Positions 1-18,613 of a stretch of DNA of 24,557 bases are shown here, piece by piece (the stretch's first letter is position 1; the number at the start of each line of letters is the position of its first letter). Under the pieces are notes generated by a model. The model had not been told where the DNA came from and ran no database searches. It saw only the letters and a list, made by a program, of their open reading frames with translations. The stretch spans positions 1-24,557 of the forward strand of contig JAYUUO010000266.1 of NCBI GenBank assembly GCA_043754515.1, written 5' to 3'. Made by a program: the position numbers and the translations under genes. This DNA comes from Armatimonadota bacterium (GTDB taxonomy: Bacteria > Armatimonadota > Armatimonadia > Armatimonadales > Armatimonadaceae).

Positions 1-160
1 GGTTTTTACCGACTTGCGTGTCGCCTATGCTCTTGCGGAGTACGGTGACCGCCTCCTCCAGATCGCCGTCCGCTTCGGTGAGTGCTTTCTTACACTGCAT
101 CATGCCCGCGCCAGTCTTCTGGCGCAGTTCGTTAACCAGTGCCGCTGTGATTGTCGCCAT
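1..160 (-). CDS. tsf: Translation elongation factor Ts, 5' part (runs off window edge)
   Basis: Manual translation from ATG at 160 gives [43 protein letters not shown], the typical EF-Ts N-terminus. AGAAAGG SD lies upstream, and the gene follows rpsB as in the conserved rpsB-tsf operon. It is absent from the ORF track. Confidence 0.95.
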
Positions 161-244
161 GGTGAGAATGCCTTTCTGATCAAAAAATGGTTTGTATTTG
201 ACCGCCCGTGTGAGGGGCGTTTCTGTATCGCCGGTTCGTCCACG

Positions 245-285
245 CAAAGCAAAGGGCGCGCGCGAATAAAACGCGCCGCGCCCTT
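245..285 (-). terminator. GC-rich hairpin with short U-tract between rpsB and tsf (terminator/attenuator-like)
   Basis: Minus strand reads AAGGGCGCGGCGCGT-TTTATT-CGCGCGCGCCCTT followed by TGCTTT. Confidence 0.6.
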
Positions 286-328
286 ACGGTTCTACCTCAA
301 CCCGCCCGATTCCTGTACCAGGGGAGTT

Positions 329-1423
329 TTAGCCGGACTTGTGCGCGTTGGAGCCAGTGCTACCCACGTTCAAGCCGCTCCCGATTGACACCGAGCCGGG
401 GTCGTTGCCCGTCTCGCGGGCGATGATCTGCGTGGCTTCCGCTGCGCCGACGTTCACGTCGCCTGTGCCCTGCGCGGCTGTGCTGTCTTGCAGATCTGAC
501 AGGCGAGACTCGGCGTTCGCGACAATCGCCTGCGGATTCGAGGCGGCGAAGAGTGCCTCCTCTTCCTTCAGAGCGGCTTCCTTCAAACGTCCTTCCTCGT
601 CGTAGTCGAAGTTCAGCCCGCGCGAGTCAATCTCCATCTGGCGGCGGCGGTCTTCCGGCGAACGCGGCGCGGCGGCGGCTTCGTCATCGGTCATCAGCGA
701 TGCGGGCAGTTCCGGCGCGCCGAGGCCCTGCTCGTCCCACTCATGTTGCTTGACTTCCACGATGGCTTCCGCGATCTTGCCCGCGATCAGTTTGATCGCG
801 CGGATCGCGTCGTCATTGCCGGGAATCACGTAGTCCACTTCGTCCGGGTCGCAGTTCGTGTCTACGATCGCGACGATCGGGATGCCGAGGGAACGCGCTT
901 CCTTGATCGCGAGGTGCTCCTTCTTCGTGTCTACCACGAAGAGACACGCGGGAAGGCGCGGCATTTCTTTGATCCCGCCCAGGACCCGCTCCAGCTTGTC
1001 CTTCTCCTCGGTCAGAAGAGCGGCTTCCTTTTTGGTGAGCTTGAGGAAAATGCCTTCGCGCTCCATCTGCTCGAGTTCGCGCAACCGGGTGATACGCAGC
1101 TGAATCGTGCGGAAGTTGGTCAGCATCCCGCCGAGCCAGCGCGATGCGACGAAATACTGGCGCGAGCGGATCGCGGCTTCCATAACGGCGTCGGACGCCT
1201 GTTTTTTGGTGCCGACGAACATGATGCTCCCACCGCCTGTCACGATGTCCTGGACGAACTTCGCCGCGTCCTCAAAAAGTTTGAGCGACTGGTGGAGGTC
1301 AATGATATAGATGCCGTTGCGCGAACCATAGATGTACCGTTTCATCTTGGGGTTCCAGCGGCGGGTCTGATGTCCGAAGTGAACGCCTGCTTCGAGCAGG
1401 TCCTTCATGGCGATAGTTGCCAT
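329..1423 (-). CDS. rpsB: 30S ribosomal protein S2 with long acidic C-terminal extension
   Basis: Motifs [29 protein letters not shown] and [23 protein letters not shown]. True start is probably ATG 1423 ([10 protein letters not shown]) with AAAGG upstream, not 1513. Confidence 0.98.
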
Positions 1424-1429
1424 AGTGAT

Positions 1430-1545
1430 ATGAAGCCTTTCCCGGTTTTGTCGGACGGGCATGTCGCCACGTCCCCTCCCCCGATTCGGGTCATGCCGCG
1501 TGAGTCGGCGCAACCGGGACGAACCGGGGTGTGTGGTGTATTCTG
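1430..1545 (-). ncRNA. Probable S2 (rpsB) autoregulatory leader RNA
   Basis: The 5' UTR has CACACAC followed by the stem CCCCGGUUCG...CGAAUCGGGG, similar in position and layout to known rpsB leaders. Confidence 0.55.
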
Positions 1546-1572
1546 TTTTTATCGCACACGCAAAACCTTCCC

Positions 1573-1601
1573 GTTATATCACGGTACCAGTTCGGTGGCA
1601 A
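1573..1601 (-). promoter_or_regulatory. Sigma70-type promoter of rpsB-tsf
   Basis: TTGCCA-17 nt-TATAAC with an extended -10 TG. Confidence 0.75.
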
Positions 1602-1718
1602 ATCCAACATGCTTTTGCCGATCAGTAACGTCGCTTTTTGGAGGGAATGTTCATGGTATAGTAGGAACAATAGCCCTCTATGTCAACCGGTTTATAGACC
1701 ACGAAAGACGAAGTCCTT

Positions 1719-3212
1719 ATGTACAATGTACTCGCTGTCATTTTGATCCATGCCCTTTTGTCATCAGTCGGCGATACACCCTTTGTCTTGAATAACTCCG
1801 TGACTGGCCCTACCGCGCCTGCTGACAGTATTCGTCTGGAAGCTCGTCAGGCAACATTGTCAGCGGGGGTAACACTCCGTGAGACGCCAGGAGCCACCGG
1901 TAAGGGATATGCGGGAGATTTCGTTCCCCAAGGCTCGAAAATTACCTGGACGATACCGAATGCACACGCGGGAATATACTCGGTTCGCATCCGGTACCAG
2001 GCACTGGGGGGGCAGAAAGGATACGACCTCGTTGTCAACGGTCATAAGTCCAGTAATATGTTCCCGGCGACGCAAAACTATTTCTCGGAAGTCTCGGGCG
2101 GGAAGGTCGAGTTGATGGACGGGGCGAATACTATCTCCATTGAGCGGGGCTGGGGTTATTTTCAGATAAATGTGGTCGAACTTTCGACTTCTCCTCCACA
2201 GTCGCCGCTTCGCCCCATTCCCGCGCAACTTTCCGATAAAAATGCGACACCGGCGACGCATGCCTTATTCGCCATGCTTCGCCGCGACTACGGCACTAAA
2301 ACTCTTTCCGGGCAGGCGGAGTTCGGTGACACAAGGTTTCTGGAAGACACTCTCGGATCTACCCCGGCAATTCAGGCGGGCGACTTCATTGAGTATTCAC
2401 CTACACGGCGACAACGTGGTTCCGATCCTCACAATGAGGTGGAAAACGTGATCGCGGCCGCGAAGCGTGGGCAAATCGCTTCCATGCTCTGGCACTGGAA
2501 CGCGCCGAGCGGTATCCTGGACGCTCCTTATACTGACAAAGCAGGTAAAAAGGTAGACGCACACTGGTACTTCGGCTTCTATACGCACTCGACTACTTTC
2601 GATCTGGCGAAGGCGATGAGCGAACCGAAATCACCGGAGTATGCTCAACTTGTGAGCGATATAGACGTGATCGCCACACAAATGAAAAAGTTCAGCGACG
2701 CGGGCGTGCCGATACTGTTTCGTCCCCTCCACGAGGCAGAGGGCGGCTGGTTCTGGTGGGGTGCGAAAGGCCCCGAGCCCTGCAAGAAACTGTGGCGACT
2801 ACTTCATGAACGGTTGACGAAGACGCACGGGTTGCACAATCTGATCTGGGTCTACAGTTCCGGTACAGACCCGAAATGGTATCCGGGGGATGATGTGGTA
2901 GACATCGTGGCGGTAGATCAGTACCCGACCGATGTAAGTGACCCGCTCGTTTCGGTCTGGGAAACGCTTCTCGCGCAATACGATGGGCGCAAAATGCTCG
3001 CGCTCACGGAGTTCGGCGGGGTCCCGGACATCGCGCGAATGCGTCGTTTCGGCGTGCGCTGGAGCTATTTCGCATCCTGGCAAGGTAACGATCTTGGGCC
3101 GAGGCGACACGCCCTGCCCGAACTGAAACGCCTTTACACTGCGTCAGGGATCGTGACACTCAAGGACCTACCGGCGTCACAGACCGGTCATGTCCACTCG
3201 CGGCCCTGGTAA
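1719..3212 (+). CDS. Secreted GH26 beta-mannanase with N-terminal CBM35/CBM6-like module
   Basis: Signal-like N-terminus, a CBM-like region (LEA...GYAGDF...GWGYFQI), and GH26 motifs WHWNAP, RPLHEAEGGWFWWG (acid/base Glu), WYPGDDVVDI and ALTEFG (nucleophile). Confidence 0.92.
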   Translation: MYNVLAVILIHALLSSVGDTPFVLNNSVTGPTAPADSIRLEARQATLSAGVTLRETPGATGKGYAGDFVPQGSKITWTIPNAHAGIYSVRIRYQALGGQKGYDLVVNGHKSSNMFPATQNYFSEVSGGKVELMDGANTISIERGWGYFQINVVELSTSPPQSPLRPIPAQLSDKNATPATHALFAMLRRDYGTKTLSGQAEFGDTRFLEDTLGSTPAIQAGDFIEYSPTRRQRGSDPHNEVENVIAAAKRGQIASMLWHWNAPSGILDAPYTDKAGKKVDAHWYFGFYTHSTTFDLAKAMSEPKSPEYAQLVSDIDVIATQMKKFSDAGVPILFRPLHEAEGGWFWWGAKGPEPCKKLWRLLHERLTKTHGLHNLIWVYSSGTDPKWYPGDDVVDIVAVDQYPTDVSDPLVSVWETLLAQYDGRKMLALTEFGGVPDIARMRRFGVRWSYFASWQGNDLGPRRHALPELKRLYTASGIVTLKDLPASQTGHVHSRPW

Positions 3213-3295
3213 TCATCGCACGCCTCCGGAGGACCCTATTGCTCGCTTAGGCCGACAGTTATCGCTTAGTTACGGCCTGTACAGTCGTCTACACT

Positions 3296-4696
3296 ATGAC
3301 ATCCGACTCCCCCACGAAACAAAGCCGCTTCGCCCGCTACCGGCTCCTCGCGACGCTGGTGCTATACGTCGCCGTGCAGATCCTCTGGGTACGGGCGACC
3401 CCGACCCAGTCCATTTACCTACCGGATAATCTGCCGACGTACCTCGCGACGGATTTTTCGCTGGTTGTCGGCCTCGGTCCAGACGAGAAAGAGCACTACC
3501 TCTACGTTCTGTCCCTCGCGGATAACGGCCGGCTCCCGAAGCCCTCTCCCGCGTTCCGCGCGTCGCCGGACGATTACGTTTCGTATCAAGCCCAACATCC
3601 GCCGCTCTTTTACGCCCTGAGTGCTGTGATTTACAAGGCGGCGCATCCCCTTGTCGGCGACATAAAGATCTGGTATCTCCTGCGCGGGTTTTGCGTCCTC
3701 TGCGGGCTGGGAGTCATCGTGCTGACTGATCGAGCGGCGAAAACTGCCTTCCCCGACCGCCCTCTGGTCGCGCTGGGCACCGCGCCGTTCGTTGCGTTTT
3801 TGCCGATGTTCGGGCACATGACCGGTAATTTCTCGAACGAGCCGCTGGCGATGCTATTCGGCGCGGCGGTGTGGCTCCAGTCGGTGCGGCTCTTGCGCCG
3901 CAGCACGCCGCCTACTATTCGGGAGGCGTTACTTCTCGGCCTCACGCTCGCCCTCGCCTGTCTGACTCGCCTCACCGCGCTGTTATGGCTCCCCGTGGTC
4001 AGCATCGCGCTACTGCGAAGGGGGCGGGTCGCGCTCCCGGCGGCACTCGCGGGGTTCGCGCTGTTCGCGCTTCTTCTCGCGCCCTGGTTTGCCTACAATC
4101 AGGTCGCTTACGGGCACGCGTTTTTGCGCACTTTTGATCGCCCGCTTCTGGCGCGAGGACCCATCTCAGACTTCTTCGGGCGCGGCCTGGTACCCGCCGA
4201 GTTTCCCGTGCCGATCAATTCTACCCAGTCACTCCTCTGGTACGCCGGAACCGCCTGGCTCCCGTTCTGGCTGACGCAGTTTTATATGCCCGATTTACGG
4301 CCCATTTTTCTGCTCCTCGACGCGGGCGCGGTGATTCTGCTCGTGCTGAACGTCAGCAAACTGACGCGCGATGGCGTGCCCGACGCGTCTGGCAAAGCGA
4401 TTGTCGGCGCGGCGTTCGCCGCAACCCTGTTCTGCTTCGCCGCGCTGATCCAACAGGAATTATTCGCCGACTGGAATGTCGTGCTGTCCGCGGGCCGCTA
4501 CCTGGTCGCCGCCGCGCCCGCGACGGGGCTTTTATTCCTGCTCGCCCTTTCCACACTCCGCCCGCTGAACCGCCCGGTGGTCGCGGCTCTGGTCGCGGCG
4601 GTGATGCTCGCCTTCGACGTGTACGCCGCGAACACGGTACGGCAGTTCTACGGGGATCATCCGACGCAAGCCGAAATCCAGCCGATAACGAAATAG
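3296..4696 (+). CDS. Multi-pass membrane glycosyltransferase (GT-C, ArnT/GT39/DUF2142-like)
   Basis: PDEKEH and QHPPLFY loop motifs, SNEPLA, GRY and many hydrophobic helices. Confidence 0.8.
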   Translation: MTSDSPTKQSRFARYRLLATLVLYVAVQILWVRATPTQSIYLPDNLPTYLATDFSLVVGLGPDEKEHYLYVLSLADNGRLPKPSPAFRASPDDYVSYQAQHPPLFYALSAVIYKAAHPLVGDIKIWYLLRGFCVLCGLGVIVLTDRAAKTAFPDRPLVALGTAPFVAFLPMFGHMTGNFSNEPLAMLFGAAVWLQSVRLLRRSTPPTIREALLLGLTLALACLTRLTALLWLPVVSIALLRRGRVALPAALAGFALFALLLAPWFAYNQVAYGHAFLRTFDRPLLARGPISDFFGRGLVPAEFPVPINSTQSLLWYAGTAWLPFWLTQFYMPDLRPIFLLLDAGAVILLVLNVSKLTRDGVPDASGKAIVGAAFAATLFCFAALIQQELFADWNVVLSAGRYLVAAAPATGLLFLLALSTLRPLNRPVVAALVAAVMLAFDVYAANTVRQFYGDHPTQAEIQPITK

Positions 4697-4734
4697 GTTC
4701 GCCATCGGCTGGTCGTGCCATTACCCTGCGGGTG

Positions 4735-6174
4735 CTAAGGAGTAGCGGCGTTCACCGATACCGCGTGCCGGATCGTGCCGACGCCGGGGCAACCCAGCGT
4801 GAACGTCCCTTCCACCGTCTGGGAAGTCCCGGCGGGGACCGTAACCGTGTAGTACGGGAAGATCGCGGAGCGCACCACCGTCTGTTGCCACGCGCCGCTG
4901 ACGTCCCTGTAAGCGATCGGACTGCCACTCCCGGACGAGTTGTTCAGCGTCAATTTGAAAACGCGGCTCGCCGCGCCGTTGTTAATGAGCGTCACCACGT
5001 CCCGGTAGATGATTCCCCAGTTGCCAATGTTTCCTTGCCTAAACGGTGTGTTCGGCGCGACGGTCGGCGCGAGCGCGAACACGCGCCCGAATCCAGGCAT
5101 AGCGATGTCGAACATGTCACCGCCGACGACCTTGATCGTGCCGGTATCGCGTAGGGGCGTGTTGTGGGTGTACCAGCCGGTGCCGGAAACCGTGGCGGTC
5201 GCCGATGGCCCGTACACACCCGTGCTCGGGTCGGCGACGTACTGCGCGTACGTGACCGGCAGTTCCCCAGCGACCGTCGTGTCATCCACGGCAAACGTCA
5301 GGTTTGTCACCACCCCCGCGCCAACTCCTGGCGTGTTCGGGTAGGACATCAAGCCCTTGTAGACTCGCGATTCCGGCGCGGCGGCGGCGGAGTACCGGCG
5401 CGTCACGAACCCCATATCGGCGATCTGCGCGAGCCGCGCATAGTAGTCAGCGACGGTGTAGAGGTTACAGTACCGCTTCCCAGTCACGGCAGGCAGGCTC
5501 TGGTAAGCAATGTTGGTCACCTCGCACGTACCGCCGCTGACGTCAAAATCCACGACTCCGCTGAAGAAGTTTCCCGGATTCACCGGGCGGGTGCCGCCGA
5601 AGTCCACGTCGCTGCGCAGTAGCCATATGAGCCGCCCGGGGCCCACTTCGTAAGTTTGCGCGTCGGAGCTGTTGAACACATCAATGAGAGGTTGTCCTCC
5701 CGCAGTCCCGACGGTGAATCCCTTGCCATAGAGCGTCACGAAGAGCGGATCCGTGTTCGGATTGCGGAGCAGAACCGCATAGCTGATAGACTTCGTCGCA
5801 CTCGCCGGGGTGGTCGCGCGGGTCAGATTGTACACGTGCTCGAACAGGTCGCGGTAGTTGCCGGGGTCGAGCATGATCCGTTGAATCGCTTTCTGTCCCA
5901 GGGTCAGGTCCGCTAGATCGTTGTAGGTAGTCCCAAAGTCTACCGAACCCGCTACCGCGTCGGTATAGCCAAGTTCTAATCTCTCGGGGTTGTTGACGAA
6001 GATCAACTGGCGGCTGTTGCCGGGATCCGGGCTGTAGGAAACAAATGGTGACGGGCCTGACTGTGCCCTCGCGGGTAGTGAGTTGCCAGCAACTAGGAGG
6101 GACAAAAACAGGAAGAGCGCGGGAACCGTTCCGGAAATAAACGGAGTTCGGGCAGATGCGGGAGAGAAACTCAA
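4735..6174 (-). CDS. Secreted hypothetical protein, DUF3370-like motifs
   Basis: 479-aa ORF with a signal peptide ending ARA-Q. LIFVNNPE near the N-terminus and GNWGIIY near the C-terminus resemble the S-N-S-P-E and GNYGV-x-Y motifs of that group. TTG start with AAAGGA upstream. Confidence 0.6.
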   Translation of the reverse strand: MSFSPASARTPFISGTVPALFLFLSLLVAGNSLPARAQSGPSPFVSYSPDPGNSRQLIFVNNPERLELGYTDAVAGSVDFGTTYNDLADLTLGQKAIQRIMLDPGNYRDLFEHVYNLTRATTPASATKSISYAVLLRNPNTDPLFVTLYGKGFTVGTAGGQPLIDVFNSSDAQTYEVGPGRLIWLLRSDVDFGGTRPVNPGNFFSGVVDFDVSGGTCEVTNIAYQSLPAVTGKRYCNLYTVADYYARLAQIADMGFVTRRYSAAAAPESRVYKGLMSYPNTPGVGAGVVTNLTFAVDDTTVAGELPVTYAQYVADPSTGVYGPSATATVSGTGWYTHNTPLRDTGTIKVVGGDMFDIAMPGFGRVFALAPTVAPNTPFRQGNIGNWGIIYRDVVTLINNGAASRVFKLTLNNSSGSGSPIAYRDVSGAWQQTVVRSAIFPYYTVTVPAGTSQTVEGTFTLGCPGVGTIRHAVSVNAATP

Positions 6175-6311
6175 TGGTTGGAAATCCTTTCGGCGAATAG
6201 CCTACGACATGCACCCTATAATATCGGTATATTAGGACTTTTTCGTGATAGCAACTGGTAGGGACGAGATACCAGTTTCGCCGGAACCGACCAAACCCGT
6301 TTTTTTCGCGG

Positions 6312-6317
6312 TACAAT
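6312..6317 (+). promoter_or_regulatory. -10 element directly upstream of redoxin start (leaderless-type)
   Basis: TACAAT lies 8 nt before ATG 6326, with no SD. Confidence 0.5.
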
Positions 6318-6325
6318 GACATCAC

Positions 6326-6868
6326 ATGTCAGCGCAAGCCGCCAACGCTACCCCGTCGCCGCGCCACGTTGCCGCCGTGCCTAAAGCGTCGCCCCTGGTC
6401 GGCAAGACCGCGCCGCCCTTCGCGTTGCCGGATCCCGTGACCGGCGAATGCGTCACGCTCGACTCCTTGCTCGGCAAGGATGTACTGCTGATCTTTCTGC
6501 GCGGCACCTGGTGCCCATTTTGCGTTTACCAACTACAGGTACTCAAGGGCAACTTCGAGAAACTGCGGGCGGGCAACGTCGCCGTAGTCGCCATCGCATG
6601 CCAAAGCCAGATCACGGTGAAGTTGTTCCTCAAAGCCTTGCCGCTCCCGTACCTGCTCCTTTGCGACGGCTCCCGCACCGTCGCGAAAGCCTACGGGACG
6701 CACTATGTCTTCTCGCTTGAGGGTTTTAACCTGTCGCACCCCGCGCTGTTCATTCTCGACAAGACACAGACCGTTACCTTCGCGCACATCGGGCGCAACA
6801 TGTCCGATCTTCCCGTCTCCCAGATTCTGGAGAAGTTCGTCGCCCTTTTGGGAGACACGGGCGTCTAA
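6326..6868 (+). CDS. AhpC/TSA (peroxiredoxin-like) redoxin family protein
   Basis: Motifs GKTAPPFALPD, FLRGTWCPFC (CxxC), VAKAYG and PALFILDK. Confidence 0.88.
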   Translation: MSAQAANATPSPRHVAAVPKASPLVGKTAPPFALPDPVTGECVTLDSLLGKDVLLIFLRGTWCPFCVYQLQVLKGNFEKLRAGNVAVVAIACQSQITVKLFLKALPLPYLLLCDGSRTVAKAYGTHYVFSLEGFNLSHPALFILDKTQTVTFAHIGRNMSDLPVSQILEKFVALLGDTGV

Positions 6869-6871
6869 ATC

Positions 6872-7714
6872 ATGGCGAAGGGGGCGACACGGGACTGGGC
6901 GCAACTCGAAGCGTTCGAGGAAGAATACACACAGCGGCTGAACGACGAGAAGGAGTGGGACGAGAAGCGTTCGCAGTACCTGACGTTTCTACGACTACTG
7001 GCGTCGGGCGTGGACGATTTCTATACAGAGGAGACGAAAAGCCGGGACGATGATACGCGCCGACTCTTCGCCTTGCGCGGGAAGATCCTCTCGCTTCGTG
7101 ACAGGGTGGGCGTCATGGCGGACGCCGACGGCATTCTGCCCGCCGAACGTTCTTACGTTGCCAGGGTCACCCCGAAGCCCGCCGACTCCACGAAGACGGC
7201 GAAGGTACGGATGTTCACCGATGTCCCGCCCCCGAACCATTTGTACCCGGTCACCTTCGCCGATGTCCGCGAGACCCTCGCCACTCTCCCCCTGGAACAC
7301 GCCGCCGTGGTGCGCGAGGTCCGGCTGTCCAACCAGAAGCGCACCGGCTCGGACGCCGACTGGCTTGAGGGCGAGATCCGCCTGCATTGCCTGCTAGAAG
7401 CGGTGAAAGACGACGCCGGAAATAGCACGATGGGGCGGCGACTGGTCGGGCGGCGCGAGGACAGCATGGACACCGAGCGGTTCGGTGGCAAATTCGTCTG
7501 GGACGGCAACAAACTATACGCCGTTTGGGCACTAGACGTCTACCGGGCCTTCGTGCTCAAACGCGCGCTGATTCATGAGGTCGCGCACGGCATCGCCGAA
7601 CTGCCCGGCTACGCGGCGCAGGTGCGCTCGGTCGGGAGCGTGGAAAAGTTCTGCGAGCGGTACGCCGAGAACTACTATCGCCCGGCGGGGAAGTCCGTGC
7701 GCCTCGGCTTCTGA
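6872..7714 (+). CDS. Hypothetical protein with C-terminal zincin-like HEXXH motif
   Basis: 280-aa ORF 3 nt after the redoxin stop. LIHEVAHG is followed by E-KFCERYA, a typical third-ligand helix. Confidence 0.7.
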   Translation: MAKGATRDWAQLEAFEEEYTQRLNDEKEWDEKRSQYLTFLRLLASGVDDFYTEETKSRDDDTRRLFALRGKILSLRDRVGVMADADGILPAERSYVARVTPKPADSTKTAKVRMFTDVPPPNHLYPVTFADVRETLATLPLEHAAVVREVRLSNQKRTGSDADWLEGEIRLHCLLEAVKDDAGNSTMGRRLVGRREDSMDTERFGGKFVWDGNKLYAVWALDVYRAFVLKRALIHEVAHGIAELPGYAAQVRSVGSVEKFCERYAENYYRPAGKSVRLGF

Positions 7715-8261
7715 TAGGTTCCCGTGAGGGCAAGAACATCCTCGACGAACTCGGTCTTCGCTTCGGAATAGGCGTCAACGTCCCCGAAAAATCGTCCGGC
7801 AAGTTCACGCTTCAGCACGGCGTAGTCTGCGGCGGCTTCGGGGTGCGTTCGCAGGTAGTCGCGGAGGGCGATATGACGACGTAGTTCCCGACTGCCTTTC
7901 GGACAAACATGCAGATGATGGCCCATCCAGTGGGACACCCCGAGCCATCGCGGGGGATGTCACTCCCTTGTCGGTTGAAAACCTCGCGATCCGGGACTTC
8001 GCGTTGCCCGATATGTTCATACCTGGAAGTCGCAAGGCTCACAACAACCTCAGGCGAAACCTCTAGCAAGTGAGTCACCACGTCAACATCCAGGATCGCC
8101 TTCGTCGGGAGACCCAGCACCGCCGTGCTCCCGGCGTGTTCAATGGCGACGGCGAGATCGCCCAGCGCGGCCTTCCAAACGTCCCGCAGAGCCACGAATT
8201 CCGTAGCCCATCCGGGATCGTGCGACGCCAGCGTGACCATGTGAACGCCGCCGCCGCTCAT
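7675..8261 (-). pseudogene. GrpB family (UPF0157) nucleotidyltransferase-like gene, frameshifted near 7930-7945
   Basis: The N-half (DPGWATEF, IEHAGSTAVLGLPTKAILDVDV) and C-half (HHLHVC, HIALRDYLRTHPE, YAVLKRELA, YSEAKTEFV) lie in different frames. Confidence 0.85.
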
Positions 8262-8272
8262 TTTGACCGCAA

Positions 8273-9319
8273 TTAGCCTTTCAACACTGACTCGATGAGC
8301 TCCAACTCGTCGGCAGCAAACGCGGTCTTTTCCGCAGCTTTGGCGTTCTCGATGACCTGTGCCGGGCGGCTCGCGCCGATCAGCGCGGAGGTGACTCGGG
8401 AGTCGCGTAGCACCCAGGAGAGTGCCATCTGCGCGAGGCTCTGGCCGCGATCCGCCGCGATAGTGTTCAGCTTCTTCAGCTTCTCCACCAACTCGGGCGT
8501 GACGGCGTTCTCGCCGAGCGCACCGCTCTCCTGTTTGGCGCGGGAGTCGGCCGGTATGCCGTTCAGGTACTTTCCCGTAAGCAAACCCTGCGCGAGCGGA
8601 CAGAACGCGATCACGCCCATGCCTGTCTCATCGGTCGCCGGGAGCAGGTCCGTCTCCACCCAGCGGCCCAGCATCGAGTATGAGGGCTGGTGGATGATCG
8701 GCGTCACGAACCCGTTCGCCGCGCAAATCGCCTTCACGTTCCGTGTCTGCTCGCCGTTGTAGGACGAGATGCCGACATAGAGTGCCTTGCCGTGCCGCAC
8801 CGCCGAATCGAGCGCGCCGAGCGTTTCTTCGAGCGGTGTGTTGGGGTCGAAGCGGTGCGAGTAGAAAATGTCTACGTAGGGGATTTGCAACCGCGTCAGC
8901 GACTGGTCGAGCGACGCGAGCAGGTACTTGCGGCTCCCCCACTCGCCGTAGGGTCCGGGCCACATCCCGTATCCGGCCTTCGATGAGATGATCAACTCAT
9001 CGCGGTAACTCTTGAAGTTATCGCGCAGGATGCGCCCGACGCGAGTTTCCGCCGCGCCCGGCACGGGGCCATAGTTGTTCGCGAGGTCGAAGTGCGTGAT
9101 GCCGTTGTCGAACGCCGTAAACAGCATCGCCTTCGCGTTCTCATGCAGGGCGGACTCGGCGTCGTGGTGGCCCGCGTCGGTGCCGGGGTCGCCGAAATTA
9201 TGCCAACACCCAATGGAGATGGCGGGCAGGAGTAGCCCGGATCGCCCGCACCGGCGGAACCAGCCCGGTGAGTTGTTGTAACGCCCGTCGGCGGGCTTGT
9301 AGTCAGTCGTTTCATTCAT
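8273..9319 (-). CDS. Aldo/keto reductase, YghZ/MgrA (L-glyceraldehyde-3-phosphate reductase) type
   Basis: Motifs RRCGRSGLLLPAIS, GITHFDLANNYGP, SSKAGYGMWPGPYGEWGSRKYL and PLAQGLLT. Start is probably ATG 9319 (MNETT). Confidence 0.93.
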   Translation of the reverse strand: MNETTDYKPADGRYNNSPGWFRRCGRSGLLLPAISIGCWHNFGDPGTDAGHHDAESALHENAKAMLFTAFDNGITHFDLANNYGPVPGAAETRVGRILRDNFKSYRDELIISSKAGYGMWPGPYGEWGSRKYLLASLDQSLTRLQIPYVDIFYSHRFDPNTPLEETLGALDSAVRHGKALYVGISSYNGEQTRNVKAICAANGFVTPIIHQPSYSMLGRWVETDLLPATDETGMGVIAFCPLAQGLLTGKYLNGIPADSRAKQESGALGENAVTPELVEKLKKLNTIAADRGQSLAQMALSWVLRDSRVTSALIGASRPAQVIENAKAAEKTAFAADELELIESVLKG

Positions 9320-9325
9320 AGTGAT

Positions 9326-9354
9326 AGGATAAAACATGTTGCCGCGTGTGTCAA
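9326..9354 (-). promoter_or_regulatory. Sigma70 promoter giving a leaderless AKR mRNA
   Basis: TTGACA-17 nt-TATCCT-6 nt-ATG(9319). Confidence 0.75.
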
Positions 9355-9480
9355 GCAACGGTACCAGGGCGATTGCATCATAGACGGGTTTTTGCTGGTC
9401 AGGTGTATGCTCGCGGCGGAACGCTTCCAGCGGAGCAATTCATTGCCCGCTCCCCCGACAGGAACGACGTGTGGCGTCCT

Positions 9481-10926
9481 CTATACTAACTCGACGTGGA
9501 AGCCCCACAGGTGCGACTCGACCGCGCGGACCCGTACCATTTGCCCGAGCAGATCACGCCCGGACGGGAAGTGGACCGTCTTTCCGCCGCGCGTCTGTCC
9601 CTGCCATAGCTCCGGGTTCTTCGGCGAACGGCCGTCCACCAACACCTCGAACTCGCGCCCCGCCGCGGCATGCGCGGCGTTTATCTCACACGTGATCTCG
9701 TTGATGCGGGCGATTAGAATCTCGAGTCGCCGGATCTTCTCTTTATGCGGGATCTGATCCGGCAGTTTCGCCGCCTGAGTCGGGTCGCGCGGCGAGTAGG
9801 CGAACATGAACGCGCCGTCGAAACGGATCTCGTCCACGAACCGCATCGTGTTCTGGAACTGCTCCTCCGTCTCGCCGGGGAAGCCGAGCATGAGGTCAGT
9901 CGTGATCACGATGTCCGGCATGGCGGCACGCAACTTACTGACGATGACACGATACTCGTCCAGCGTGTAGCCCCGGTGCATCCGCTTGAGGAGCGTGTCA
10001 TCACCGACCTGTACGGGCAGGTGTACCTGCTCGCAGACGTGCGGAAGGCTCGCCATCGCGTGGATAACGTCGTCGGTGAAGTCTTTGGGGTACGGCGATG
10101 TGAACCGGACGCGCTCTATCCCCGGCACGTCACTCACGCGGCGGAGCAGTTCCGCAAACGAGCAGGTCGCATCCAGCCCTTTCAAGCCGTACGAGTTTAC
10201 CGTTTGGCCCAGGAGCGTTACCTCCCTGGTGCCGTGCGCCGCCAGATGCTCCACTTCGCCCACTATCTCGGATGCGGGGCGGGATCGCTCCTTGCCGCGC
10301 GTCAGAGGCACGATGCAGAAGGCGCAGAACTTGTCGCAACCGTACATGATCGAGACGAACGATTTTAGTTTGCCGGTGGTCACGCGCTTGCGCTCCGGCA
10401 GGAACAACTGCGACTCTTCCTTTTTGCGCGGCAGTTCAAGCTGGATCAGCACCTCGGACGGCCTGCCGTTCCGCGCCGCGCCCGAGTCCAGCGCGGCGCG
10501 GCGGGCGCGGAGCAGTTCGGGAATGCGCTCGAGTTGCGCGGTACCAGCCACTAAGTCAATGTGCGGCGCGCGACGCGCGATTTCCGACCCGGCGCGTTGC
10601 GCCATGCATCCGGTGACCCCGATGGTCAGGTTGGGGTTGTCCCGTTTGCGCTCGGCAAGTTCCCCGAGTTTGCTGAACACCTTGTCCTCTGGCTTCTGCC
10701 GCACGGAGCAGGTATTGAGCATGATCACGTCGGCGTCGTCCGCGCTGTCGGCTTCGACAAGGCCGTCGGCTTCGAGCAGGTTCTTGATCTGGTCGGAATC
10801 GTCCACGTTCATCTGACAACCCCACGTCATGACATGGAACCGCCTCGGGCGTGGGGCGGCTTCGGCAGTAACAGGCGAGGACGCGGGCGCGGCGTCGGTG
10901 GTAAGGGTATCGTTTTCGGCGAACAT
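9481..10926 (-). CDS. miaB: tRNA-2-methylthio-N6-dimethylallyladenosine synthase MiaB
   Basis: TWGCQMN, NTCSVR and GCMAQ (UPF0004 domain), radical SAM CDKFCAFC, RFTSPYP and a C-terminal TRAM domain. Confidence 0.96.
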   Translation of the reverse strand: MFAENDTLTTDAAPASSPVTAEAAPRPRRFHVMTWGCQMNVDDSDQIKNLLEADGLVEADSADDADVIMLNTCSVRQKPEDKVFSKLGELAERKRDNPNLTIGVTGCMAQRAGSEIARRAPHIDLVAGTAQLERIPELLRARRAALDSGAARNGRPSEVLIQLELPRKKEESQLFLPERKRVTTGKLKSFVSIMYGCDKFCAFCIVPLTRGKERSRPASEIVGEVEHLAAHGTREVTLLGQTVNSYGLKGLDATCSFAELLRRVSDVPGIERVRFTSPYPKDFTDDVIHAMASLPHVCEQVHLPVQVGDDTLLKRMHRGYTLDEYRVIVSKLRAAMPDIVITTDLMLGFPGETEEQFQNTMRFVDEIRFDGAFMFAYSPRDPTQAAKLPDQIPHKEKIRRLEILIARINEITCEINAAHAAAGREFEVLVDGRSPKNPELWQGQTRGGKTVHFPSGRDLLGQMVRVRAVESHLWGFHVELV

Positions 10927-10934
10927 AGCCGCTC

Positions 10935-10963
10935 ATTGTACGCCGGGGGCGAGCGTTGCGCAA
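10935..10963 (-). promoter_or_regulatory. Sigma70 promoter giving a (near-)leaderless miaB mRNA
   Basis: TTGCGC-17 nt-TACAAT-8 nt-ATG(10926). Confidence 0.7.
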
Positions 10964-11155
10964 AAATCGCGGGACCCGGAATATGGTCGTGAGAGGTTGT
11001 ATGTGCTTGACGGCGGCAAGAGGAAGAGATTAAAGGCGCGAGACGTATTATTCGTATCTGGATCGCCGCTGTTAAGCGGGCGAGATAGCGGCAGTCGTAG
11101 ATGGGCGCGGCAGACTGGTGTGCACCGCAGACGAAATCAAGGACGGATTAAGCGG

Positions 11156-11186
11156 TATAATCGGTCACCCCCTGTTTAGTAAGGAG
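11156..11186 (+). promoter_or_regulatory. -10 box and RBS for the small ORF-dcd operon
   Basis: Perfect TATAAT at 11156-11161 and AAGGAG 7 nt before ATG 11194. No clear -35. Confidence 0.55.
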
Positions 11187-11193
11187 TTGAACC

Positions 11194-11442
11194 ATGTCAA
11201 CGCGATTACGCGTCTCGGACATCAAGCCTGGGATGTTCTCTACGGAATGGTATGTTCGTTTTGCTGGTGTCGGTGGTGATTACGAGTTGTTCGTAGATAA
11301 AGCCAGTGTTCAAGACCAGGAACATACGATGGACGTGCAACTGGTCTATACGAATGATGAACAAGCCGTTGTGGAGCTACCCCGTGACACGATCAGCGGG
11401 CACGGCCGGGTGCAGGTTCCTATATCGGCTTTAGCTCTATAA
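11194..11442 (+). CDS. Small hypothetical beta-rich protein (82 aa) upstream of dCTP deaminase
   Basis: Strong AAGGAG SD, globular composition (PGMFSTE, ELFVD, VVELP) and a 14-nt gap to dcd, which has its own AAGGA RBS. Confidence 0.8.
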   Translation: MSTRLRVSDIKPGMFSTEWYVRFAGVGGDYELFVDKASVQDQEHTMDVQLVYTNDEQAVVELPRDTISGHGRVQVPISALAL

Positions 11443-11456
11443 ATAAGGAACGTGTC

Positions 11457-12026
11457 ATGATCTTAAGCGACAGCGAAATACAGGCGGCGTTGCAAAGCGG
11501 TCAGATCCGCATCGAACCGCCGCCGTCGCCAACGAGCTATACAACCACCGCAGTAGATTTATCCCTCGGCGGCGGCGACTTCAAGCGTTGGATCATTCCA
11601 CCAAGCGGCGTTGACATAATCATAGACCCGGCCAAGCCGGGCTTCTTCGCCAATCTCGCGCCTTATCTGGAGTCGGTCCCCTTGCAGGAGAACGCTCTTG
11701 TATTGAAGCCGGGGGAGTTCATCCTGGCTTTGACGCGAGAGCGTGTGGAACTGCCGGAAACAACACGAATTGCCGCGCGTGTCGAGGGAAAGAGCTCGCT
11801 TGCCCGCATCGGGCTGGCGGTTCATGTTACCGCACCGACGATACACGCGGGATTTAAGGGCAACATCACGCTCGAAATCAAAAACCATGGAGTCTTGCCC
11901 ATCCGTCTCACTGTCGGAATGCCGATCTGCCAGTTGATTTTCGAGATGGTCTTCGGAACCCCGTCGAAGGTGATGAGCGGCATTTTTCAGAATCAACGCA
12001 GTGTTTTAGGATCAACAACACCGTGA
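11457..12026 (+). CDS. dcd: dCTP deaminase (trimeric dUTPase superfamily)
   Basis: Motifs MILSDSEI, VDLSLG, LKPGEFILALTRERV, ARVEGKSSLARIGL, APTIHAGFKGNITLEI and GMPICQLIF. Confidence 0.93.
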   Translation: MILSDSEIQAALQSGQIRIEPPPSPTSYTTTAVDLSLGGGDFKRWIIPPSGVDIIIDPAKPGFFANLAPYLESVPLQENALVLKPGEFILALTRERVELPETTRIAARVEGKSSLARIGLAVHVTAPTIHAGFKGNITLEIKNHGVLPIRLTVGMPICQLIFEMVFGTPSKVMSGIFQNQRSVLGSTTP

Positions 12027-12246
12027 CACCTACTCGGAATAAGTGGGGCGGCAGTTTGGGTGGCGGCGACAGCGGCGAACATAATTATCATTTGGTAAAG
12101 GAGCTTTGCGGTGTGGCTCCCTGACGCGAAATAACTGACACTCTTTAGCTCGATGCTCAGGACTAATTGACCGGCATGTTGTGAAAGGCTGGCTATAGAT
12201 GTTGGACACAGCACGTTTCTCAAGGGGGGAAAGACTTATCTCTATT

Positions 12247-12711
12247 ATGCGATGGGCACGATTGGTGGTATTTGCCTCCGCGATATGTTTGACGGGGTGC
12301 GGCTTACATGCCAATCTTATGACACAACCTTCCCCCGACGGGAGATGGGGAGTTCATCTGTACACCGATGGGAAAACCGACCTCGGCATGAAAGTAACTC
12401 ATCCTCCCTCTTCACAGTCTGTGGATATGAGAAGTGCCAGTTTCATTCAAGACAATCCGAAACCTATTCTCATCGTGTGGGATGCCGACAGCAAAGAGTT
12501 CGTAGTTTTCTACCGGTGTAGCGAGGTCTCTGCCCTGGCACATAGCGGGTTCTCGGTCACAGACTCCGGCGGCAGCATAAAAGTACGGAGTCTAGAAGCA
12601 GATCCGAAATGGCTGAAGGAAACACTGCGAAAATTGAAGGCGTCACCAGACTGGAAAACACGTTACACAGCCGTCGAAATCTGGAAAAGTGCCTATCTGC
12701 GCGAACAGTGA
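12247..12711 (+). CDS. Putative lipoprotein, paralog 1 (possible immunity protein)
   Basis: Lipobox LTG-C after a hydrophobic stretch. Shares PSPxGxW, LGMK, F-QD, VW--DS-EFV-FY and PKWLK with 13049..13588. Start is uncertain (12199 or 12247). Confidence 0.75.
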   Translation: MRWARLVVFASAICLTGCGLHANLMTQPSPDGRWGVHLYTDGKTDLGMKVTHPPSSQSVDMRSASFIQDNPKPILIVWDADSKEFVVFYRCSEVSALAHSGFSVTDSGGSIKVRSLEADPKWLKETLRKLKASPDWKTRYTAVEIWKSAYLREQ

Positions 12712-12730
12712 TGCGGAAGGTGATTCGAGT

Positions 12731-12910
12731 ATGAGCGTAACGAACTACTACACCATGGCGGGCCGGCTACTAGGCGAGCATGCTACCGGCGCGGCGCGGC
12801 TAGACTATGCGACCGACGGCAAGGGCAACGTTATTCCCGTCACGAACCAGAGCGGGCAGTGCAACGGCCGGACCCCCTGTCCCGTGAGACACGATCAAAG
12901 CCCTCCGTAG
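12731..12910 (+). pseudogene. Truncated Rhs/YD-repeat core fragment
   Basis: GGAAGGTG SD, then MSVTNYYTMAGRLLGEHATGAARLDYATDGKGNVIPVTNQSGQ, resembling the Y-x-x-D-x-x-G-S/N-V...TD-x-x-G Rhs repeat. Similarity ends abruptly near 12860. Confidence 0.65.
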
Positions 12911-13048
12911 TGGGGCCGACACGTTCGCCCCCGCCTTGCACCATTTCAACATCGGACCGGAGCCGTAACGTCGGATCACGATGACTCATCACCGAGGTAT
13001 GATTATATGCGGAGATTTACGAGACGCACGGATTCTGGAGGCCCACGT

Positions 13049-13588
13049 ATGATAAAAACACCAAGCCCTCCGCTACGACCGCCCGCGTACAGGTGGGTTC
13101 TGTTGTTGCTCGCGTTCGCCCTGTGTTTAACGGGATGCGGGATAACTACAGTACCATCCGACATCACGGAACCTTCCCCCAACGGCAAATGGCGGGTTCG
13201 CTTGTATCATAGCCAGAAGCGCGAACTCGGCATGAAGATAGAATATGTGCCTGCCTCTGAGACCATCGAAGTGGATGAAACAGGCTTTCGTCAGGACAGC
13301 GCGCGACCAGAACTGGTCGTGTGGGGTAAGGATAGTGCGGAGTTCGTGGCTTTTTACAGTGCTGGTGAACTATCCTCTCTGCTAAAAGTAAGGTTCTCGG
13401 TGGCGAGATCCGGGGGCAAGACGGTGGTAACACTGATGCCCAACCCGGAACCGAAATGGCTGAAACAGGCCTTCCGCCAGAAGATACTGCCGCTGGACAA
13501 AGCGGCTCATTCCGAAGCACAGAAGGAGGCTCGTTCCAGAGCACGAAACGTTTGGGAACAGTTTTACGGTTCCCCCTTCGAGGAATGA
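13049..13588 (+). CDS. Putative lipoprotein, paralog 2 (possible immunity protein)
   Basis: GGAGG 7 nt before ATG 13049, lipobox LTG-C, and collinear similarity to 12247..12711. Confidence 0.78.
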   Translation: MIKTPSPPLRPPAYRWVLLLLAFALCLTGCGITTVPSDITEPSPNGKWRVRLYHSQKRELGMKIEYVPASETIEVDETGFRQDSARPELVVWGKDSAEFVAFYSAGELSSLLKVRFSVARSGGKTVVTLMPNPEPKWLKQAFRQKILPLDKAAHSEAQKEARSRARNVWEQFYGSPFEE

Positions 13589-17679: not shown

Positions 17680-18613
17680 ATGCCCGATGCTACGCCGCAG
17701 ACCGCCGCCCAGTACTTAGATCAATGGCCCATCGCCACCACTATTGGGGGGGAATGGTTCCCTTACCTAATCCCCGGCGCGGGACAAGCCGAGCTCCTCC
17801 AGTTACTCGAGGGGCGCATTACGCATCCTTATGACCCAAAACAGTTCTTTCACGCGGCGACCTTTTTGAGCGAGGCATGCCGACTGACGCCAGAGATAAT
17901 CAAGTCCGGCTTCCGCAACGCCGTGCGTGCCTCGTCGGTCATTCCCGCACTCCTGAAAGCGTGTGATACGGACGGCTCTTTTGCCAGTCGCCACTCCACT
18001 ATTCATACGCTGGCGATGGTCAGTTCAGGGGATGTGGTGCCGGGATTCGAAGCCGTGCTGTGTAATCGTCGCGATACCGATCCACTTCTTCTGCCAAAGC
18101 TCATCCTCGAAATCGGCTGGCTGGGCGGAGATTCGGATCGGGCGTCGCATCACGTCGCGTCAAGTACCCAGTATCTCTCATGCTGGTCGCTCCTAAATAA
18201 TTTTCTTCGGGGCAAGCCCCGAGGTATTTGCAGGACGGTGACCCGATAGTCCCCTAGAAGACTATGTCGCCTGAAAGCGGCATAGACGCCCAAAACAGGA
18301 ACGGTGCAAGCACTGGGGTATTGGACCCGCCGCGCTTTCAGCGAATAACTCAAGTGCGAGGGATGACATCCCGTTGCTAACGCGTTTCGCAGGCGATCCC
18401 GACCCGAATATCGTTGCAGAAGCGCGTCATCGGCTCGCCTACCGGGAGTTACGCGAGCGTAAGGGTGCCACCCGCTTGCATGACGCGGAGGCACCGTTGA
18501 CCTTCGAGTTTCTTGTGTTGCGCTTCTACCACGGCCTAGCGTGGCAGGACTACACGGTCTCTGAACTCGACGCATTCGTGCATGACGAGGTCGCCCGTAG
18601 GAGTGGTGCGTAG
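17680..18613 (+). pseudogene. Disrupted HEAT-repeat-like hypothetical gene
   Basis: ORFs 17680-18249 and 18374-18613 are in different frames. Both have HEAT-like segments (VIPALLKAC...SRHSTIHTLA; LLTRFAGDPDPNIVAEARHRL). Confidence 0.5.

Follow-up and report, generated by a model that had tools for sequence, protein, structure and literature searches.

A horizontally mobile pair of a small beta protein and a specialized dCTP deaminase, a candidate anti-phage system of several bacterial phyla

The DNA analyzed here, a 24,557-nt stretch from an Armatimonadota genome (the window; source genome 5.1 Mb, 92.7% complete), carries a two-gene unit of ~830 bp, all of whose features lie on the forward (+) strand. 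The unit begins with TATAAT (11156–11161), a putative −10 element without a consensus −35, and continues with an AAGGAG ribosome-binding site (11181–11186) placed 7 nt before the ATG of a gene for an 82-amino-acid, all-beta protein that we term the partner (11194–11442; alignments, structure model and complex model). A spacer of 14 nt containing AAGGA (11443–11456) separates this gene from dcd (11457–12026), which encodes a 189-amino-acid trimeric dUTPase-fold dCTP deaminase of the HxTAPTIH type (assigned by TIGR02274, Foldseek and a tree). This layout is the one given by an earlier reading made from the sequence alone, with the proviso that TATAAT stands as a lone −10 element: a sigma-70 scan made no + strand promoter call at 11156–11161. 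That reading had also placed the unit at the edge of an apparently low-GC patch, which agrees with a GC3 of 0.52 for the partner gene and 0.65 for dcd against a genome median of 0.78 (469 called genes).

The same reading described toxin/immunity-like debris directly beside the unit. Adjoining genes are present, but they comprise two paralogous lipoprotein-like orphan genes (12199–12711 and 13007–13588), 43% identical to each other, and, between them, a 59-amino-acid fragment (12730–12910) that is presumably RHS-repeat-like and has no match in Pfam or NCBIfam. Signal-peptide matches of the paralogous pair are weak and under the cut-off, and a clear homologue is absent from the rest of the genome. 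Two degraded patches lie elsewhere in the window, one with a split gene that we take to resemble GrpB (7805–8261) and one with HEAT-repeat-like fragments whose Pfam match is weak (17680–18613). Contigs from four DNA runs are fragmented, and no joint across the module was found among them; a look-up of RNA data sets that hold the sequence listed none. A single 1,810-nt contig (run X8, record 21) matches only window positions 11238–11553 and diverges from the window past 11553; this one contig may reflect an insertion within dcd in one population.

The deaminase passes the TIGR02274 dCTP deaminase cut-off (123.6 bits versus 92.8), and its confident structure model matches E. coli Dcd (PDB 2j4h) in a Foldseek search with an E value of 3.8e-16, a TM score of 0.81 and ~35% identity. 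Where E. coli Dcd has IDPGW and M. tuberculosis Dcd has IDPGF, it carries TIHAGF, a departure from the canonical (I/V)DPG(F/W) that the sequence-only reading had picked out. In a tree rooted on canonical Dcd, from which sequences >80% identical or <140 residues long were removed, the 76 tips of this kind are monophyletic with respect to 42 other Dcds (FastTree support 0.897). The signature of the clade consists of two replacements, Pro127 (E. coli His125) and His130 (E. coli Asp128), within the allosteric loop and motif III that run from H123 to F133 (11823–11855). A Pro after the HVTA peptide is found in 102 of 104 clade Dcds, and a His in place of the motif III Asp likewise in 102 of 104, a set that includes one misfiled canonical enzyme. 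The clade is a large one: among the top 150 representatives at 50% identity, the signature His occurs in 101 and Asp in 13, and 24 were not parsed.

Alignment with the E. coli enzyme suggests which activities the clade has kept. Motif II (K112-S113-S114-L115-A116-R117, 11790–11807; E. coli R110–R115) is seen in both the alignments and the complex model, and the catalytic Glu140 (11874–11876) is invariant in 63 and 79 aligned clade members. S113, R117, H123 and E140 are all invariant and align to E. coli S111, R115, H121 and E138; the residue matching E. coli A124 is retained, and an aromatic occupies the W131 position. We assume, in part, the catalytic roles of the matched E. coli residues (S111, R115, H121, A124 and E138). 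As these catalytic-site residues are retained, deamination is likely intact in the clade.

The two signature positions point to altered properties. The motif III Asp of dUTPases positions the hydrolytic water (PMC5519681). Because His takes the place of this Asp, at a position judged from alignment to be equivalent in bifunctional DCD-DUT and dUTPase enzymes, hydrolysis of dUTP has likely been lost in the clade. E. coli Dcd keeps the motif III Asp and yet is no dUTPase, so the exchange may have consequences for sugar binding as well. In canonical enzymes dTTP feedback acts through the HVTA loop, whose counterpart in some dUTPases is held in check by a Pro (PMC4827122). By analogy, we infer that the clade Pro has left these enzymes without dTTP feedback.

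The partner is a real gene. Homologues of both genes are under purifying selection, with a median dN/dS of 0.25 for the partner (433 homologue pairs) and 0.14 for dcd, in each case over pairs that are not independent. The predicted partner structure is all-beta (pLDDT 90.9), with G13, E18, L59, E61, L62, P63, R72 and V75 conserved in alignments. It has no match in Pfam, NCBIfam, PADLOC, PDB sequences or PHROGs (the last queried with 33 members), HTH, RHH and AbrB matches are absent, and a Foldseek search of the model against the PDB and viral models returned nothing at E 0.001. A wide structural search gave half-length SH3/KOW/Tudor matches only (best Z 4.9, rmsd 1.6, 46 of 82 residues), which establish neither a known nor a new fold, and in the ESM Atlas the protein falls in unnamed clusters only, of low recognition value. 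An internal two-fold repeat is visible in the secondary structure, but profile comparison is weak (probability at most 21%) and we do not claim it. Longer or fused forms amount to 1 protein of 175 amino acids among 7,996 candidates, likely an early start call. Upstream of the partner, a conserved promoter or operator is not evident. The gap between partner and dcd in 96 homologous pairs is most commonly +1 (32 pairs) and then −4 (19 pairs), which is consistent with translational coupling.

Linkage of the small open reading frame to dcd in other genomes, on which the sequence-only reading had staked its case, is tight. The partner lies directly upstream of 106 of 111 distinct HxTAPTIH Dcds and of 0 of 109 other Dcds, counted with a broad partner profile over 296 loci, 33 partners having built that profile; the remaining five comprise three Dcds without a partner and two loci that are cut short. 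Genome loci with a Dcd 46–68% identical to that of the window number 20 and belong to Armatimonadota, Planctomycetota, Acidobacteriota and Alphaproteobacteria; each has a partner homologue immediately upstream, and one of the loci (L056) is frameshifted. A 23-sequence partner profile built from these loci was then applied out of sample to 80 independent metagenome loci and matched at 77. Of the three misses, two have <80 nt of upstream DNA, and the third (L236) is genuine. Pairwise distances of partner and Dcd are also correlated (Mantel r 0.85, null maximum 0.20 in 999 shuffles). The pair was further seen on four viral contigs and on three rhizobial plasmids examined; searching viral sequences with a divergent clade member gave no match. 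Partner and clade Dcd are thus a coupled two-gene operon that moves together as one unit. Chance adjacency of a small open reading frame and dcd is ruled out by the tight linkage to the Dcd clade.

No other dcd was found in the source genome, whose dut lies on another contig. The gene of the window is nonetheless accessory rather than vertically inherited, as had been proposed. A Dcd above the cut-off is present in 0 of 31 genomes of the same family (completeness 61–98%), and in a genome of the same genus similarity to the window breaks off at position 10966, a short way upstream of miaB, where a different gene, which we take to be hflX-like, follows and the module is missing. With the low GC3, these observations make the module an acquired insertion. 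A vertical housekeeping dcd is ruled out by the family genomes and by the differing site beside miaB. The source genome also holds thyX and a gene that we label dCMP-deaminase-like on the strength of a Pfam match and its motifs; together these would supply dUMP without Dcd.

Carriers are rare across phyla, at 0.5–2% of genomes: the partner profile detects 6 of 401 for the host's phylum, and the phyla of three further carriers give 7 of 351, 2 of 401 and 3 of 351, each count including the carrier used as center. At 36 of 37 loci the module has a lower GC content than the flanking DNA, with a median difference of 8.8 points. A stronger-scoring canonical Dcd accompanies the module in 8 of 25 carrier genomes, four carriers hold two divergent modules, and in several carriers the clade dcd is the sole dcd found. 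The pair is shown by this distribution to be horizontally mobile between unrelated bacteria, with patchy spread. In two related genomes (loci L030 and L031; G039:C2 and G051:C1), the housekeeping dcd is split by ~1.1 kb of in-frame sequence within open frames of 560–564 amino acids, possibly an intein.

To describe the surroundings of the pair we took 44 non-redundant loci, each offering 2.5 kb of DNA or more, and annotated their 270 neighbors within 4 kb with Pfam. The flanks are mostly housekeeping genes, and no third gene is conserved. Ribonucleotide reductase adjoins the pair at 2 of the 44 loci (L050 and L118), and thyA, thyX and dut are found 0 times among the 270 neighbors. These data bear on an explanation in which the enzyme is an accessory metabolic Dcd that provides dUTP for thymidylate synthesis or dNTP balance, the partner replacing dTTP feedback. 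The ordinary flanks, the two reductase loci, the TIGR02274 match and the sole-dcd status in the source genome and several carriers would fit such a role. The module is, however, rare, scattered and low in GC, coexists with canonical Dcd in about a third of carriers and is duplicated in some; thymidylate genes never adjoin it, the host family lives without Dcd, and broken copies exist. We consider a metabolic role improbable.

A defense, toxin-antitoxin or mobility gene lies nearby at 15 of 44 loci, a tally made by reading annotations and without a control count; restriction-modification, Cas, AbiU-like and toxin-antitoxin genes adjoin some of them. Raw PADLOC matches number 8 of 44 module loci versus 7 of 22 canonical-dcd control loci, in a comparison of 124 proteins preselected as non-housekeeping (mostly from module loci) with 147 unselected control proteins. 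Six of the seven control-locus matches were judged by hand to be generic homologues. After this curation the counts are 7 of 44 versus 1 of 22 (Fisher p 0.25), so that enrichment in defense islands is not shown, a result that is compatible with the metabolic explanation and does not sustain the proximity to defense islands expected from the sequence-only reading. In behavior the pair is closer to a lone mobile module than to a resident of defense islands.

Individual loci lie among conflict genes. At L203 and L207, the pair sits directly behind an HTH gene and a capP-like peptidase gene, opposite genes for ubiquitin-like and E1-like proteins. Regulators of this HTH/capP-like peptidase kind control immune operons (10.1101/2022.04.27.489752 and PMC13373217), though at these loci the operon under their control may be the divergent one and not the pair. 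The L203 locus (80–12542) is an integrase-linked island with DUF2188, ubiquitin-like, E1-like, HTH, IrrE-like peptidase, module, FRG and PRTase-CE genes. At L120 the pair is prophage cargo. Separately, in a 540-amino-acid protein (P0025) a phosphoesterase domain is followed by a fused Dcd domain whose active-site loop is altered. The phosphoesterase domain matches the anti-phage models PDC-S60, DS8 and DS9 with scores below the NCBIfam cut-off, and the fusion suggests that Dcd domains serve as conflict effectors elsewhere.

The organization of the pair recalls type II toxin-antitoxin modules, in which a small gene also comes first and is coupled to the second. The solitary mobile insertion and the predicted direct binding of the two products extend the likeness; unlike such modules, the pair has no match to a known toxin or antitoxin family. 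A purely selfish addiction module, in which a toxic Dcd and an unstable inhibitor cause post-segregational killing without anti-phage benefit, would account for solitary insertions between core genes at unrelated sites, for the lack of a conserved third gene, for the other toxin-antitoxin pairs near some loci, and for occurrence on plasmids and in prophages. Set against it are the loci behind capP-like regulators and beside defense genes, and the existence of intact orphan dcd genes. A clade dcd with an intact frame and no partner occurs at L236, L287 and L293; in one of the three, Ser replaces the aromatic residue of motif III. A search of the L287 and L293 genomes gave no partner at another site either. 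As a strict toxin would seldom be expected to outlast its partner, these orphans weigh against strict toxicity, and of the explanations considered we hold pure selfishness to be the least probable.

Decay also runs in the other direction. At L163 (= G070), L148 and L235 dcd is broken and the partner is seemingly intact, and at L056 both are broken; with both directions seen, the decay pattern gives no direction of dependence between the two genes. The partner-less dcd of L236 (6001–6700) lies downstream of an unrelated membrane protein gene and adjoins an apparent tRNA gene, noted by eye in the translation. Partner copies with no dcd were seen in one genome, G399, twice (L248:7499–7876 and 10610–11017), each with an acidic tail of ~40 amino acids. 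These copies sit in a duplicated block among ParE, PIN and AbrB genes; their tails, which we take to resemble antitoxin C-termini, have zero family matches.

We modeled the partner together with the Dcd trimer by co-folding. The complex scores 0.78, versus 0.23 for the best of three controls; of 157 solved complexes 116 attain this mark, as do 2 of 215 mismatched pairs, figures that are roughly valid for co-folding as done here. Runs agree in at least 93% of contacts, with a partner pLDDT of at least 86. The partner is predicted to bridge two Dcd subunits, touching residues 112–117 of one and 132–138 of the other, so that the interface comprises both active-site walls, motif II from one subunit and motif III from its neighbor. 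Among the predicted contacts are the Ser/Arg helix that binds phosphate and the motif that stacks on the sugar, and 8 of the 11 most conserved partner columns fall in the interface (p 0.004). Binding of the partner across the active-site cleft is thus supported by the model, and symmetry predicts at most three partners per trimer. The sequence-only reading had the small protein gating the enzyme as an inhibitor or phage sensor. Co-folding favors the physical part of this idea, a partner that would cover the active site; in this ligand-free model an inhibitor and a cap look alike.

A structural precedent for inhibition at this site is Stl of SaPIbov1 (PDB 7pwx), which inhibits trimeric dUTPases by binding the active-site cleft of the dUTPase fold via motifs II and III (PMC9927489), as the partner is predicted to do. 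Stl is a phage-satellite repressor and acts in trans on an enzyme of a phage; by contrast, the partner is a small beta protein encoded in cis beside the enzyme that it would bind.

The main rival to inhibition is that the partner activates the enzyme or sets its specificity. The C-terminal arm after the catalytic Glu, the site of a third clade-wide change, has a median length of 44 residues in the clade versus 57 in other Dcds (~13 shorter), and the KY-x-Q tail is present in 1 of 104 clade Dcds versus 47 of 88 others, so the partner could complete the active site rather than block it. Dcd and partner would then form a conditional defense enzyme that is harmless if either gene is lost, acting on dCTP or on 5-substituted dCTP of the kind some phages make. 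The placement of the partner at the mouth of the active site in the model fits such a subunit, as does the occurrence of both intact orphan dcd genes and orphan partners. The HVTA loop of canonical enzymes shifts to admit a 5-methyl group (PMC4827122), and the clade has Pro as the next residue and His for the motif III Asp. Against this, the predicted contacts fall on those parts of the fold to which Stl binds when it inhibits dUTPases. We regard an activating or specificity subunit as unlikely, if less so than the metabolic and selfish explanations, which follow it.

We favor inhibition, with a probability of about 0.45, that is, tentatively and at slightly less than even odds: the partner would inhibit an unbraked dCTP deaminase until phage infection or stress frees the enzyme to deplete dCTP. 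By covering the active site of the specialized trimer, the partner would hold the enzyme off. His130 would remove dUTP hydrolysis, leaving dUTP as the product, and Pro127 would stiffen the dTTP-feedback loop and so release the enzyme from its brake. The trigger would be phage infection or stress that removes or displaces the partner, upon which the freed Dcd would drain dCTP and DNA replication would stall. Depletion of dCTP is reported to block phage (10.1101/2021.04.26.441389). The benefit to the host would then be anti-phage defense, with addiction as a side effect. This reading draws on the linkage, the separate clade, the accessory spread, the complex model, the gene order and the loci with defense neighbors. 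Counting against it are the comparison that shows no defense-island enrichment, the mostly housekeeping flanks, the three intact dcd genes that lack a partner, ribonucleotide reductase beside the pair at two loci, the shortened C-terminal arm and the absence of HTH, RHH and AbrB matches in the partner. We speculate, in the same tentative spirit, that the pair constitutes an undescribed anti-phage system of several phyla, built on a Dcd that has lost dUTP hydrolysis and dTTP feedback, gated by a new family of small beta proteins that are inhibitor and infection sensor in one, and possibly specific for 5-modified dCTP from phages.

Housekeeping Dcd and DCD-DUT enzymes (E. coli 1xs1/2j4h, M. tuberculosis 2qxx; TIGR02274, PF22769) share the fold and catalytic-site residues of the clade. 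The clade enzymes differ in forming a separate clade with the D128-to-H and H125-to-P replacements and a shorter arm, in having a dedicated upstream partner, and in their patchy horizontal spread. The outcome proposed here, conversion of dCTP to deoxyuridine nucleotides and starvation of replication, is shared with the anti-phage deaminase of E. coli AW1.7, which we take to be of the AvcD type. AvcD is gated by an RNA antitoxin. The AW1.7 protein has 576 amino acids and combines a kinase with a zinc-dependent deaminase (10.1101/2021.04.26.441389); the clade Dcd, unlike it, is a metal-independent dUTPase-fold trimer of 189-residue subunits with a protein partner. Membership in the kinase-zinc deaminase family, whose members exceed 350 amino acids, is ruled out by this length, by the dUTPase fold and by the absence of a PADLOC match.

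Literature searches over the main texts of papers outside subscription found no description of the pair, which supplementary tables of large defense screens could nonetheless list, and no precedent for a dedicated protein regulator of dCTP deaminase. The module is hidden under an ordinary 'dcd' annotation and is missed by PADLOC. The partner is a candidate for such a regulator, and the clade is a natural experiment on what the dTTP feedback loop and the motif III Asp contribute to enzyme behavior. If the favored reading is true, the pair would represent an independent invention of dCTP depletion from a core metabolic fold, for which one enzyme architecture is known so far.
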